From contig OX597817.1 in the NCBI GenBank assembly GCA_951406725.2, positions 77,624,001-77,688,000 of the forward strand: a stretch of DNA of 64,000 nt, in the 5' to 3' direction. Below the pieces are notes generated by a model, which was not told the origin of the DNA, did no database searches, and saw only the letters and a program-made list of their open reading frames with translations. Position numbers and translations under genes: made by a program. Below are positions 9,075-63,531 of this stretch, one piece after another; within the stretch, counting starts at the first letter, position 1; each line of letters opens with the position of its first letter. Source of the stretch: Octopus vulgaris. Lineage: Eukaryota.

Positions 9075-9270
9075 AAGTTAATCCAAACAAGAAAGCAAAA
9101 AAAAACACAACAACGCGAGGACGTGGAACAAATATAGTATTATTGGACGCTCAGGAAAGAAGGAAAGGAGGAGGGTTTAACGTTTCGAGCGGAGCTCTTC
9201 GTCGGAAACATAGGAGAAGGAAAGATCTAGAGAAGAGAAGACGGAGGAAAAAAATCCCCAACGGTACACA
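9075..9270 (-). mobile_element. Short hammerhead-bearing repeat (family H1) next to (TA)n
   Basis: Homologous to 25690-25887, 36765-36880 and 58070-58165; motif at 9175-9209. Confidence 0.7.
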
Positions 9271-9584
9271 GTTTTATCTTTATGGCTGAGAGTCATGCAT
9301 TAAAGTTTCATGTTAAAACCGTACACACTTAGAGTGTCCTCAACGCCCACTGCTTCATGTTCTATCTTTGTATTGTGTCTATCCTCCCAGAACCAGAGGA
9401 TGTGGGCACAGATGCTCTGGATCCTTATAAGATTGTTAGTCAAAATATCGCAGTTTTCGCCATCTGTACATACATACATACATACATACATACATACATA
9501 CATACATACATACATACATACATACATACATACATACATACATATATTCATGCATGTCTGATGGCTGTCAACTCATCGTATCAT

Positions 9585-10004
9585 GGCGGCGAGCTGGCAG
9601 AATCGTTAGCACGCCGGGCGAAATGCGTAGCCGTATTTCGCCTGCCGTTACGTTCTGAGTTCAAATTCCGCCGAGGTCGACTTTACCTTTCATCCTTTCG
9701 GGGTTGATAAATTAAGTACCAGTTACGCACCGGGGCCGATGTAATCAACTTAATCCGTTTGTCTGTCCTTGTTTGTCCTTTCTGTGTTTAGCACCTTGTG
9801 GGTAGTAAAGAAATAGGTATTTCGTCTGTCTTTGCGTTCTGAGTTCAAATTCCGCCGAGGTTGACTTTGCCTTTCATCCTTTCGGGGTCGATAAATTAAG
9901 TACTATTAACGCACTGGGATCGATGTAATCGACTTAATCTCTTTGTCTGTCTTTGATTGTTCCCTCTGTGTTTAAGCCCCTTGTGGGCAATAAAGAAATA
10001 AGAA
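9585..10004 (+). mobile_element. tRNA-derived SINE family B (dimeric body)
   Basis: A-box-like TGGCAGAATCG and B-box GAGTTCAAATTCC, central GTCGACTTTGCCTTTCATCCTTTCGGGGTCGATAAA consensus repeated twice, tail ...AATAAAGAAATAAGAAA. Confidence 0.8.
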
Positions 10005-10269
10005 AGTCATCGTATGATCATCACTGACAAAAAGCAACGCCTACTTAAAATGTTAGGTCTTGTAAAGCTTGCACAAAAATCTCGTAGAGTCTCTCCGCAC
10101 TGTTGGCCTGATCCAGAGACAAGCCGATGCAAGATATCTTGAGCCAATATAGGTTGTATGTTCAGTAATGTGGAAGCGCCATTATCTGAAGTGCAAGTTA
10201 AAAAAATCCTCAAAATGTCCATTGCTATTCCCAGCAGACCCAGTTTTATATCAGAATGACTTTCTTATA

Positions 10270-10490
10270 CAGTTCACCGCCATCAATTCATCGCAAGAGA
10301 GTTCACCGCCATCGATCCACCGTGAGGAAAGTTTGCGGAGAAAATGTATCCATAGAATCTCACTATTAATAGTTAAAAACTATTTTATTGATTAAAAAGT
10401 AAATGAATAAATTAAATAAAAAATAAAACAGTGAATTGATGACGGTGAGCTTTCGCTGCGTTGAATTGATGACGGTAAACTGATGGGACA
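10270..10490. mobile_element. MITE with imperfect, internally repeated inverted ends
   Basis: CAGTTCACCGCCATCAATTCA (repeated) against TGAATTGATGACGGT(G/A)A (repeated). Confidence 0.55.
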
Positions 10491-10529
10491 TGTTTAGAGA
10501 CATTATTTAACAATTGTTTTGTCGAGAAC

Positions 10530-11021
10530 AACCCAATTACTTCTTTTCTTTATTACTAAATTGGTACTTATTATATCGGTCTCTTTTGGCGAACTAGTAA
10601 GTTGCGGGTATGTTGATAAGCCAACACCGGTTGTCAAGCGGCAGTGTGTGGGTGGGGGACAAGTATAAAAATACACACACACACACACACACATACATAC
10701 ATACATACATACATACATACATACATACATACATATATATATATATATATATATATATATATATATATATAGAGAGAGAGAGAGAGAGAGAGAGAGAGAG
10801 AGAGAGTGAGAGAGAGAGAGAGAGAGTGAGAGAGAGAAAGAGAGAGAGAGAGAGAGATGGTACGAGCTTCTGTCAGTTTCCGTCTACAACATCCATTCGC
10901 AAGTATTTGGTCGTCCCGAAGTTATAATAAGCGACACTTGTCGAAGTGGCTGCACAGTGGTACTGAACCCGAGACCACATGGTTCAGAAACAGGCTTCTT
11001 AACCACACAGCCACTCCTGCA
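10530..11021 (-). mobile_element. SINE family A, diverged, with expanded internal microsatellite
   Basis: Homology to 4460-4847. Confidence 0.7.
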
Positions 11022-11044
11022 CTTTAAATATATATATATATATC

Positions 11045-11292
11045 ATTTTTGGATTTGGTTTACAAGATTCTTTATATGAGTTCGTGTGTTGAAGCATATT
11101 ATGTTGTGTCTGAGGAGAGTCATTTTCTTTTAACACACTCACCGGTAAAATTTCCACTTATTTCTTATTTTTATTTGCCTAAAATTTTTGTTACGTCTTG
11201 CAACCTTTTCAATAGTCTTATTGAAAAAGGTTGCAAGACGCAACGAAAATTATAAGGCACAAAAAGAAAATGACTCTCCCCAGACACAACAG
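11045..11292. mobile_element. Fold-back element in (TA)n with variant hammerhead motif (family H5)
   Basis: Inverted arms centred near 11216; hammerhead-like fold at 11215-11258 on +. Confidence 0.65.
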
Positions 11293-11912
11293 TATATATA
11301 TATATATATATATATATATATATATATATATATATATATATACAGTTTCAGGAAAGAGATAAAAAAAGTTTTATATACTATATATACTATATATACTATA
11401 TATATATATATATATATGGTATATTAAATTTTTTCTCTAACTTTCATGAAACGGAATTTCATTAGAGATTAGACAAATCATAAATGTCTCTAAAAGGTTC
11501 AGCAACGCGAAATCTATTATACACCACAAAAATAATTTTAGAAATTTCCCCTTATCCAAGTCATTGGTTAAATCAAATTCCTTATCGTTTTCCATTAACC
11601 AATGACTTTTCACGTAGGGTCTCTTCATGTCGTACAGATGCTAAAATATATACATACATCCATCCATCCATACATACATACGTGCATGCATACATACATA
11701 CACACACACAGACACACACACACACACACACATATATATACATATATATACGATGAGCTCCTTTCAGTTTTCGCCTACCAAATCCACTCACAAGACTTTG
11801 GTCGGCCGAGGCCATAGTAGAAAACACATGCTCAATATGCCACACAGTGAGACTGAACCCAGAACCACGTGGTAGGGAAACAAACTTCTTACCACACAGT
11901 CAACTTCAAGAA

Positions 11913-61130: not shown

Positions 61131-61573
61131 ATAAAAGTAAAGCAAGGTGGCTTGCTCCATGACCTTATATTGAAACTGACAAAGTAACGCCGTGAACGAA
61201 ACAACTTGGCCACTTAAAAACACACAAAACCTACTGAACTTGCTTTTTATTTAATTTTTGAGATGTCGCAGCGGTGCAACGACAATTTTGATCCTCAAGA
61301 AATATATAAAAATATTCATGTTTTTTTTTTTGCATATTTTTGAAAAGCAAAATTAGTTTCGCGATGTAATTACTTTCTGTTTAATAAAATTGAAAAGAAA
61401 TGTTCTCATTTTGAAAATGTTTGCTGTTTTAATCTCGGAGTTAATTTTAGAGTTCTTTTCTTTTTGTTTGTTTTTCACCCGAACTCGTGCGTTGAAGCTA
61501 ATGCAATTACATCATAGAATCATAGAAGGACCCTTTTAGCTATCTGAAAACACACAAAAGCTATTAAATTTAC

Positions 61574-61885
61574 AGGGTGTTCGGGCAAAATTTTACGATT
61601 TTTTACGTCTAGTTTTTCTCAGGAACAGCTTGAAATATTGGTGAACAGTCAAAGTCGCTGCAAAGCATAAAGATTAAAGTTGTACTTAAAAAAAACATTA
61701 GTTGACATGGAGGACTAGAAGCCATCTGAATATTGAAAAAAAGTTTCTTATATCGTGATGATTCGCGCCGGGTATAAAAATGCCAACATCATAACAGTTG
61801 TTCAATGCGCTATAAACATTGTAAAGACTGTAAGACCATGGACAGCTTCAATGGAAACTATGACACCTTGGCCAACATGAAGATG
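61574..61885 (+). mobile_element. 5' fragment of a Tc1/maT-like transposon
   Basis: TA-CAGGGTGTTCGG start; decayed frame IVMIRAGYKNANIITVVQCAINIVKTVR. Confidence 0.45.
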
Positions 61886-62365
61886 ATACACACGGACTCG
61901 AATTTCTGGGTGGTTACCTGTCCTCAGCATGTGTTAATCACTGGCTAGTGATAAAATCTCATTCCACTCGCAAATTACTATATACTTTTCTAGCAATTCA
62001 CTGCCGCTCATCTCGTAAAAGATAGAGATATGTTATATTAAATCTTTGAGCGAGATATCAACAGTAGCGGTACGGAATCGTATCATGTATTTGCCAACTA
62101 AGTGTGGTATCCTATACAGGACAGTGCTACTGCAGGAAGACATCTCCGCCAGCTGGCTAATGTCACACAGTCTGTGTCCGATTAGTATTTACGAGGGGAG
62201 GTCATCACTCCCATCTCTAGCCTTACGTGATATACATGGACTCGAGTTTCTGGGTGGTTACCCGTCCTCAGCGTGTGTTAATCACTGGCTAGTGATGAAA
62301 GCTCATTCCACTCGCTCATTACTACATACTTTTAAAGCGACTCACTGTCGCTGATCTCGTAAAAG
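61884..62365 (+). repeat. Direct repeat of about 135 bp (61884-62021 and 62229-62365)
   Basis: GGACTCGA(A/G)TTTCTGGGTGGTTACC...ATCTCGTAAAAG occurs twice. Confidence 0.8.
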
Positions 62366-62374
62366 GCAGCCGCA

Positions 62375-62570
62375 TATGTTCATATAGATCGCTAGCCACT
62401 ACGCATTTTTTATTTTCTCTCCCTGTGTCTTTCTGTGCTCCTTTCTAAAGAAAAGCGTAGGCACGAAACGTTAAAGACTTTTTCACTTCTCGAACGTTAA
62501 ACTAATACATCTGTTTGTTGTTTACACCACCTGTCTTCGTCTTTTGTTGTTTGTTTTGTTAATTCTCCCT
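62375..62570 (+). mobile_element. Repeat family H2, copy 2 (decayed hammerhead at 62441-62476)
   Basis: Homology to 29705-29910; ends in (TA)n. Confidence 0.65.
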
Positions 62571-63068
62571 ATATATATATATATATATATATATATATAT
62601 ATATATATATATATATATATATATATATATATATATATATATATATATATATATATATATATATATATATATCCAAATAGTAAAAAGACAAAGTAATCCG
62701 TTGATACATCTTTAATGATCGTTACAATTGTTTCTGTACCAACTCTGCTTGCTTGCAACGCCAGTTTACACAAAAATTCGAAGTGAAAAATTAGAGTGGC
62801 ATTTCATCATACTAGCATCAAAGGGCACACCTTTGGTGTACACTTGCATTTTGCGTCTTTCGGACATTATTTATTTATTTATTGCTTATATTGGGAGGGA
62901 ACAAAAAGTAAATAAAAATGTGGTCAAAGGATGAATAAGAACCTATGACTTTTGCTCTCTCTCTCTCTCTCTCTTTCACTCTCTCTCTTCTCTCTCTCTC
63001 TCTCTCTCTCTCTCTCTCTCTCTCTCTATCTATCTATCTATCTATCTATCTATCTATATATATATATA

Positions 63069-63297
63069 CTTTATTTTAAGCAGCAGAAAATTCAACAAAA
63101 TCTGTAACTCTGAGTTTCTCGTTGCCGTTCATCAGACAGTTTTTGCTAGAAAAAACTGTCTGATGAACGGCAACGAGAAACTCAGAGTAACAGATTTTGT
63201 TGAATTTTCTGCTGCTTAAAATAAAGCATATTACTCTACCACTGGTATTTGAGTACTCTTTTTCCACCTTGTTTCACATTTATGTGTTTACTCCGGT
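63069..63297. mobile_element. Fold-back hammerhead element family H3, copy 2
   Basis: Palindrome at 63069-63226; flanked by (TA)n. Confidence 0.8.
63156..63193 (+). ncRNA. Minimal hammerhead ribozyme motif (mirror copy at 63102-63139, minus strand)
   Basis: CTGT-CTGATGA-A-CG(GCAA)CG-A-GAAA-CTC(A)GAG-TA^ACAG. Confidence 0.7.
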
Positions 63298-63451
63298 CTA
63301 TATATATATATATATATATATATATATATACATACATACACACGTGCAACTTTTAAAGGATACAAAAATGTAAGCCTAAAGGCTTAACGAACTCTTTTCC
63401 TCTTTTCCTTTTTCTTTTTCCTCCTGTCTATATTCCTCCGATAAACTAAAT

Positions 63452-63531
63452 CATTCTGATGACGGTTGCTACATGGAACGAGATAAATGCAAATTTACCT
63501 CAAAAATAACAAACTGAAACAGCTGTAAATG
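63452..63531 (+). ncRNA. Hammerhead ribozyme motif with large loop II
   Basis: CATT-CTGATGA-C-GGTT...AACT-GAAA-CAGCTG-TA^AATG; palindromic stem III ACAGCTGT. Confidence 0.6.

Follow-up and report, generated by a model that had tools for sequence, protein, structure and literature searches.

Minimal hammerhead motifs in an octopus genome window and their probable place in the terminal repeats of Penelope-like elements

The window analyzed here, the whole 64,000-nucleotide stretch at positions 77,624,001 to 77,688,000 of contig OX597817.1 of Octopus vulgaris, is AT-rich DNA laden with microsatellites. An earlier note, made from the letters of this stretch, had described many short, partly fold-back elements in it that carry the order of a type I hammerhead ribozyme. 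Self-comparison of the window yielded nine repeat families, F1 to F9. With a probability of about 0.8, the sites are read here as type I hammerhead motifs of the minimal form, located in the terminal repeats (pLTRs) of Penelope-like elements (PLEs): six families would be truncated ends of elements encoding a reverse transcriptase (RT) and a GIY-YIG endonuclease, and one a tandem unit without an open reading frame (ORF), likely copied by the same proteins.

The descriptor used for the scan demanded a perfect CUGANGA or a U3-A8 core, a stem I of at least 4 bp, a stem II of at least 2 bp (1-nt bulge allowed) and a Watson-Crick stem III; 30 block-wise dinucleotide shuffles of the window and the reversed sequence served as controls. 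Eight perfect-core matches were found in the window, compared with a mean of 0.03 (maximum 1) per shuffle, and none in the reversed sequence. When one core change was permitted, 10 matches were obtained (0.33 in shuffles), while a stricter, bulge-free descriptor retained only two sites and missed most. In 40 evenly spaced 10-kb regions of the 2.80-Gb assembly (399,800 bases), 23 sites were located in 14 regions, against 0–2 in five shuffles, corresponding to 3.7 sites per 64 kb. Rough extrapolation gives 110,000–160,000 perfect-core motifs genome-wide, the lower figure omitting one seven-unit array.

Of the 15 sites listed earlier, every one of which falls in a hammerhead-bearing family, seven were intact, one had a broken stem I, three carried a single core change and four were damaged. 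A perfect core with all three stems was present at 36780, 63156, 44209, 45296, 45876, 53301 and 63452, the eighth descriptor match being an inverted arm at 63135. At site 53019 the core was perfect and one stem I pair was broken. Single core changes, each of them family-wide, were seen at 9175 (CCGACGA), 37203 (CCGAAGA) and 29784 (CTGTGGA), and the damaged copies were 25754, 62441, 43993 and 11215, the last from a U3-A8 family whose stem I has 3 bp. Tested family by family, the core was exact type I in F3, F5, F6, F7 and F8, U3-A8 covariant in F9, and inexact in F1 and F4 (U4C) and in F2 (A6U). Stem III was palindromic or tiny-looped at the sites, and the candidate core CTGAGGA at 11110 was rejected. 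Rfam hammerhead models gave no match at the gathering threshold in the window or in L255 (L numbers denote stretches outside the window), nor was any hammerhead among the best 150 of 541 E-value matches in the window, the top ones being microsatellite and hairpin artefacts.

The window motifs are genuine hammerhead motifs, their self-cleavage being predicted. The palindromic or tiny-loop stem III described in the earlier note was upheld, and the shuffled control that it proposed showed an excess in the window. The claim of a full hammerhead order stands for the families but not for each single copy, and the population is very dense as claimed, although the eight matches against 3.7 per 64 kb place the window only about twofold above the genome average. 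The Rfam comparison proposed there came out negative.

F1 copies, assigned to the 3′ end of a Neptune-like PLE, are present on the minus strand at 9076..9270 (position C3 of the core at 9205, predicted cleavage base 9179, core CCGACGA with the U4C change of the family majority, stem III ACGT), on the plus strand at 25687..25887 (3′ end at (TA)n, damaged core CTGACGT, C3 25758), as a partial minus-strand copy with a perfect core at 36764..36875 (C3 36810, predicted cleavage base 36784), and as a minus-strand 3′ fragment without a hammerhead at 58069..58165. Two plus-strand copies represent F2, a second putative Neptune-like end: 29719..29912 (C3 29788, predicted cleavage base 29815, core CTGTGGA with the family-wide A6U) and 62384..62570 (damaged core CTAAAGA, C3 62445).

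Four families were assigned to Hydra-clade PLE ends. The young F3 fold-back at 63064..63297 occupies both strands; its plus arm has the long tail (C3 63160, predicted cleavage base 63189), its minus arm the short end (C3 63135), and both arms have perfect cores and the stem III ACTC-A-GAGT. An older, damaged F3 fold-back, also on both strands, lies at 43916..44135 (core CCGATGA, GAAC box, C3 43997). The F4 fold-back at 37079..37367 has C3 at 37209 (+) and 37192 (−) and the U4C core CCGAAGA. At 44192..45432, F5 forms an inverted insertion with a microsatellite-rich 3′ untranslated region (UTR), two perfect cores (C3 44253 on the minus strand with the short end, C3 45302 on the plus strand with the long tail) and the palindrome ACTAGT in the stem III loop. 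In F6 (45847..46051), a minus-strand hammerhead arm (C3 45960, predicted cleavage base 45882, stem III ACAATTGT) is joined to an inverted tail piece on the plus strand.

The ORF-less retrozyme-like F7, a 469-bp unit, lies at 52797..53427; its minus arm (C3 53073) passes a tail-to-head junction and reaches the long end at 52797, and its plus arm has C3 at 53307 and the predicted cleavage base at 53355, with stems I and II of canonical size. F8 is an older PLE-type end with a long tail on the plus strand at 63333..63761 (C3 63456, predicted cleavage base 63527, stem III ACAGCTGT). The F9 fold-back at 11047..11295 has the U3-A8 core TTGAAAA at 11212 (−) and 11221 (+), stem III AATT, a 3-bp stem I and damage in both arms, and an F9 tail fragment lies at 58769..58846 (−). 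A hammerhead-like site absent from the earlier list, F10, was found at 54696..54749 (+), with core ATGATGA, A at position C3 (54704) and an 8-bp stem I. The ORF list of the window contained no PLE protein, and three PLE queries run by tblastn matched nothing in it.

Each family was searched once in the genome and 40 candidates were scored, the first-look candidate counts being lower bounds: at least 1324 for F1, 1531 for F2, 1182 for F3, 841 for F4, 174 for F5, 1650 for F6, 2188 for F7, 437 for F8 and 807 for F9. For F3 and F5, all 40 scored matches, window copy included, were 100% identical, and both families are very young. In all nine families the 3′ end is fixed at (TA)n and the 5′ end is variable, which is the pattern of target-primed retrotransposition. 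A (TA)3 stood no more than 14 nt from the 3′ end motif in 65/70 F1, 34/37 F3, 29/30 F4 and 26/29 F5 copies, compared with a background of 5%, and 10 window insertions inspected by eye showed no duplicated target other than the TA repeat. Two classes of 3′ end, 47–115 nt apart, occurred in every family examined for them; among 39 incidental F3 copies, 15 ended at +69 to +71 and 24 at +124 to +139. Fold-backs, found in 17/28 F3 and 28/41 F4 copies, were typical of the Hydra and ORF-less families. Long TA/TG microsatellites of the F5 3′ UTR (window 44560-45030, L041–L070) were common to its copies, so this element spreads microsatellites besides targeting them.

By the coding sequence found upstream, six of the nine families (F1–F6) are 3′ ends of autonomous-type PLEs. 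The F3 parent measures 3355 bp and has an intact ORF of 711 aa comprising an RT plus, at the C-terminal end, a GIY-YIG domain (L031, L040). Its protein has the motifs RWK, DKT, YRDD, CxCx5C, CxxC and CxH and no CCHH, all of them being present in L031, while one linker Cys is replaced in L040. The F3 tail leads into the ORF start at three distinct loci, and short F3 copies match the end of the intact autonomous element at 100% identity. Pfam assigned no family to the F3 protein, and a homolog search with it returned 1761 full-length relatives, nearly all without names. For F4, a Hydra endonuclease is contiguous upstream at two loci (L156, L158); for F5, a Hydra ORF lies at a constant distance of about 2.9 kb upstream at five (L102, L104, L107, L109, L114); and for F6, one lies upstream at four (L295, L296, L297, L299). 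These three families yielded ORF fragments only, in which C-terminal Hydra motifs were seen. Assignment of F3–F6 to the Hydra clade rests on motifs, target, tail and pLTR hammerhead, with references compared by eye.

F1 and F2 appear Neptune-like by motifs and by their likeness, judged by eye, to Neptune1_Ap. In F1, a 1.7-kb CA-rich 3′ UTR is preceded by a broken RT and an endonuclease with a CX4CxxC linker and CCHH (L365, where linker and CCHH were read, common to L373). For F2, an RT with a DKSG motif is located upstream in L304, and only the C-terminus of the endonuclease in L304/L305. Hydra ORF pieces beside F1 (L088/L098) and F7 (L206) were considered as parents and rejected, being either inverted or set apart by another element. 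L088 and L098 contain an F1 copy fused to an inverted Hydra RT fragment, a single event that was duplicated. F8 abuts Hydra RT fragments in one locus (L217). Neptune-type endonuclease frames unlinked to the window families were also noted (L225:215-858, L310:2893-3738, L297:920-1597, L382). A published octopus repeat annotation counts 31 recently active Penelope-like families (PMC13282606).

The Penelope-like origin proposed in the earlier note was thus borne out by RT/GIY-YIG sequence upstream of six families, and the kind of partner it had suggested looking for, with RT, GIY-YIG and the same ends, was found, for example, in F3. Its placing of the elements at (TA)n proved correct, and its dimer-type stem III was supported. 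The term non-autonomous does not apply to those six of the nine families; F7 is the only family to which it applies with certainty. Inverted partial copies occur, as described there, in Hydra and ORF-less families and are absent from the Neptune-like ones.

In F7, the sequence upstream of the hammerhead runs back into its own tail, giving the 469-bp period, and the longest Met-ORF has 58 aa. A query across the head-to-tail junction was spanned by 40/40 scored matches on many contigs. In 29 distinct loci, ends fell at unit position 388–394 in 10 and 468–469 in 11, so that 21/29 lie at two fixed points; the inserts measured 0.68–1.64 units, two cleavage sites were spanned in 9/29, and no longer array was seen. 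In 15 loci with an overlap of at least 60 bases, repeats differed from each other by 3.9%, compared with 6.1% between loci (Wilcoxon p 0.0009), and repeats within one insertion shared 40 of 87 non-majority bases, against 5.7 expected from other loci. This sharing would point to one template read more than once or to a homogenised tandem source. The post-cleavage segment folded weakly better than shuffles (z −1.9). A 66%-identical relative at L063:2219-2742 (−) is a head-to-tail 507-bp unit with compensatory hammerhead changes. In assembled contigs of four runs (three presumed RNA, one unlabelled), F7 was covered and the joint was found only in the unlabelled large run, contigs being unable to show RNA ends; a search with the F7 monomer listed no RNA data set containing it.

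A second ORF-less family, with a 359-bp unit and a canonical hammerhead, was met at random in arrays of 1–7 units and has the same two end types, inversions and TA targets as F7. Its array at L255:2097-4768 (contig C1, about 20.002–20.005 Mb) comprises five forward and two inverted units with TA on both sides, and at least 2121 first-look candidates were counted for the family. At L405:7309-9133, L406 and L407, three duplicates of one event, this retrozyme is joined head-to-head to a 5′-truncated PLE ORF with RT and GIY-YIG. The PLE 3′ end there lacks a hammerhead; the element is a possible partner of the 359-bp retrozyme, and no sequence common to the two was detected in these loci. F7 and the 359-bp family are consistent with non-LTR retrozymes, a circular RNA being predicted, and F7 is best described as an ORF-less retrozyme-like unit that is likely copied by PLE proteins.

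Three large families (F1, F2, F4) have amplified with non-canonical cores. Position 4 is C in 29/45 incidental F1 copies and 44/47 F4 copies, and position 6 is U in 28/29 selected and 17/20 incidental F2 copies, most of the others being further damaged. U4C is known from a viroid and lowers activity, and A6C cleaves slowly (PMC3088659). Hammerhead mutants do not block PLE insertion in vitro (PMC11167929), with which the large U4C and A6U families, their cores being putatively impaired, agree. As for the stem covariation looked to in the earlier note, the outer stem I pair was paired in 110 of 124 F1/F2 copies, against 61 when shuffled, and F7 differs from its 66%-identical relative by three double, compensatory changes in stem I; compensatory changes are thus apparent in the alignments, with few independent events. 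In co-folding, the homodimer was favoured for all nine stretches, and a dimer hammerhead was predicted for F5 and F7. With a palindromic stem III, the motifs are predicted to cleave only as dimers or when aided by a protein; minimal PLE hammerheads show no monomer cleavage and weak dimer cleavage (PMC4209133). Further U3-A8 hammerhead families were noted at L268, L281, L291, L257 and L288, and more unrelated ones at L260/L274, L276, L280, L282 and L290.

The 5′ ends of copies were concentrated at short distances upstream of the core: −66 to −87 in 28/29 F1, −66 to −74 in 21/29 F2, −11 to −17 in 16/28 F3 and −12 to −19 in 26/41 F4 copies. The peaks recurred in incidental copies of F1 (18/28) and F3 (23/39). 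None of 110 incidental copies started within 3 nt of the predicted cleavage site. The peaks sit on TCATTC (F1), TCAGTC or GCAGTC (F2), and CCATTCT and TTCAAA (F3, F4), the chance of TCAKTY in eight positions being 0.013; by eye, no downstream promoter element was present at a consistent distance. The Penelope pLTR holds an initiator-type internal promoter (PMC2377424). A tally of 141 inverted insertions of seven families, 122 of them classifiable and 19 not, gave one long and one short arm in 115, two long arms in four and two short arms in three. A lizard PLE has two RT start sites in vitro, and its protein cuts and extends both strands (PMC11167929); the two 3′ end classes observed here match these two start sites.

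A mechanism can be proposed in which the PLE protein would cut the two strands of a (TA)n target and prime one complementary DNA (cDNA) at either cut end, using two distinct start sites immediately 3′ of the hammerhead. The template would be an uncleaved RNA starting inside the pLTR, so that most cDNAs would run out at the 5′ terminus of the RNA, shortly upstream of the uncleaved hammerhead, the abundant 150–250 bp copies being run-off products. The two cDNAs would, in Hydra and ORF-less families, join head-to-head into one long-tail and one short-tail arm (twin priming). For F7, a hammerhead-processed circle, or else a tandem transcript, may serve as a template that is read repeatedly. The autonomous families probably do not require cleavage in order to insert. 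The widest form of this mechanism is put forward tentatively, and we hold it at rather less than even confidence: animal retrozymes would be inserted by PLE proteins through twin priming, a dimer priming one cDNA per end of the cut (TA)n site at the two fixed start points, reading the hammerhead-made RNA circle repeatedly and joining the cDNAs head-to-head. Capped uncleaved mRNA would give "strong-stop" copies, which would account for the majority of the hammerheads in the genome (over 100,000), and families with crippled cores (U4C, A6U) could in this way amplify.

Several observations weigh against this interpretation. The arm tally is biased, since the F3, F4 and F5 queries held the long tail and the F6 and F9 queries part of both arms, so that one arm was selected, and a few insertions were counted twice through overlapping loci. 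The F2 peak at −67 was absent from incidental F2 copies, no sharp 5′ peak was found in F5, F6 or F7, and the resemblance to an initiator is imperfect in F3 and F4 and was spotted only after the peaks were known. No fold-back was seen in F1 or F2 (0/29 each), whose covariation amounts in essence to a single change separating the two families. Minimum-energy monomer folds produced the full hammerhead in 0/9 families. F8 and F9 showed neither a head-to-tail junction nor a clear parent in 20 loci each, and no parent was found for F7, the upstream DNA of its diverged relative being outside the search. Finally, two variants alternate along the L255 array, a pattern that agrees with a multimer template rather than with a monomer circle.

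The most serious competing explanation, which we consider possible and rather less probable than the proposed mechanism, is that sharp 5′ ends and fold-backs arise from RT stalling or palindrome-driven template switching past the hammerhead and not from an RNA 5′ end. F3 fold-backs are centred on a CTAG/GCTAGC palindrome 11–14 nt upstream of the core, and the F3, F4 and F9 peaks lie right at stem I; the F1 and F2 peaks, however, lie 70–85 nt upstream, on initiator-like motifs and without fold-back, and self-priming of one cDNA would give equal or nested ends, not the long and short pairs observed. A similarly doubtful explanation concerns F7 alone, whose tandems could be local DNA duplications or stem from a homogenised tandem source locus, without circular RNA. 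The variants shared within insertions also fit this, no F7 locus among 29 exceeds 1.64 units, and the alternation in L255 is also in its favour. The junction register, however, was identical at 40/40 scored sites on many contigs, and the ends have RT-type tails and inversions, so that the F7 junction was in the template and not formed locally.

That all families are non-autonomous retrozymes or masters resembling short interspersed nuclear elements (SINEs), spreading through their own short transcripts, is unlikely. Most copies are indeed short with sharp 5′ ends at initiator-like motifs, F7 and the 359-bp family of L255 are ORF-less, and F9 is almost always a short fold-back; six families nevertheless run upstream into RT or endonuclease sequence, and short F3 copies are identical to the ends of the intact element. 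As contributors, short masters may have a part in F1, F2 and F9. The notion that the motifs are chance matches or ends of DNA transposons resembling miniature inverted-repeat transposable elements (MITEs) in low-complexity DNA could draw on the absent Rfam match, the damaged window copies and the MITE-like appearance of the fold-backs. It is refuted already, and hardly credible, given the scan counts in the window and in the 400 kb elsewhere, the variable 5′ and fixed 3′ ends and the RT ORFs upstream.

Other repeats were recorded in the window. Long inverted repeats without a hammerhead match occur at 20200-20424, 22365-22489, 31711-32359, 35969-36370 and 57390-57547, and TTAGGG-like arms (MITE-like or SINE pairs) at 31938-32148. 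A SINE-like repeat of 148–184 bp stands in tandem at 9633-10000, 21069-21427 and 38778-39230, and a second abundant SINE-like family has more than 20 occurrences. A 206-aa frame with C2H2-like zinc-finger motifs at 50206-50826 (+) is likely the C-terminal end of a long interspersed nuclear element.

The ribozyme and transposon classes found here are already known: PLE ends of the Hydra and Neptune kinds, and non-LTR retrozymes. In the open literature (subscription papers, Repbase and Dfam being outside the search), nothing on the present points was found for retrozymes in octopus or hammerheads in cephalopods, for inverted, target-primed insertion of retrozymes by Penelope, for pLTR starts as against truncated copies, or for U4C in Penelope hammerheads. 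The Hydra clade was defined by RWK, DKT, CxCx5C, CxxC and CxH without CCHH (Craig et al. 2021, PMC8557442), and the supplement of that paper already lists an octopus element that prefers (TA)n and bears a hammerhead, Hydra-1_Obim of Octopus bimaculoides. Features in common with Hydra-clade PLEs are a single ORF with the clade motifs, (TA)n insertion, a 3′ hammerhead with an ACTC-N-GAGT-type stem III, tandem and inverted copies and a one-sided tail. F3 matches the row of the coral element Hydra-2_Amil in stems I and III (PMC8557442 supplement File S2), whereas the Hydra-1_oBim hammerhead row is matched by no window family. Compared with the Hydra PLEs described there, the units are longer (3355 bp in F3, a 3′ UTR of about 2.9 kb in F5), the tails measure 65–115 nt as opposed to 30–40, and the F4 core is U4C.

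With Neptune-clade PLEs, F1 and F2 share a DKG-type motif, the CX4CxxC linker, the CCHH endonuclease, an RT resembling Neptune1_Ap by eye, and the minimal GAAACGU hammerhead with a bulged base after position 9; broken ORFs only, the family-wide U4C (F1) and A6U (F2) and the lack of inverted arms set them apart. The minimal hammerheads of PLEs described by Cervera and de la Pena (2014, PMC4209133) likewise have the bulge between 9 and 10.1, a short stem I, a palindromic stem III and U3-A8, occur as opposite-strand pairs 100–700 bp apart and are mostly solo copies of truncated PLEs. About 9,000 were counted in Xenopus, against the far higher number extrapolated here, and U4C and A6U are not among the features met in the accessible part of that work.

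Non-LTR retrozymes (Cervera and de la Pena 2020, PMC7229834; Li et al. 2026 preprint, 10.64898/2026.07.22.740005) resemble F7 and the 359-bp family in being ORF-less head-to-tail repeats a few hundred bases long, each unit bearing a single type I hammerhead, while F7 forms mostly dispersed inserts of 0.7–1.6 units. The PLE-type tails, inversions and (TA)n targets of F7 and the 359-bp family are unreported for retrozymes in the accessible text of these two sources, where PLE mobilisation of animal retrozymes was proposed from co-occurrence and pLTR similarity. Anolis Poseidon in vitro (Frangieh et al. 2024, PMC11167929) resembles the present elements in its two RT starts near the hammerhead, the cutting and extension of both strands, an AT-rich target and a dispensable hammerhead; it differs in belonging to another clade and in having its start sites inside the ORF, whereas here they precede it. 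What is added to these systems is that ORF-less units bear the footprint of PLE integration, namely a (TA)n target, inverted arms and two fixed 3′ ends. The rule of one long and one short arm, together with the 5′ peaks, yields a model of PLE inversions, tails and solo copies that can be tested, and bears on the purpose of the hammerhead. F3, a very young and intact Hydra element with a known target and start sites, provides a substrate for the biochemistry of a clade that its available accounts describe from sequence alone.

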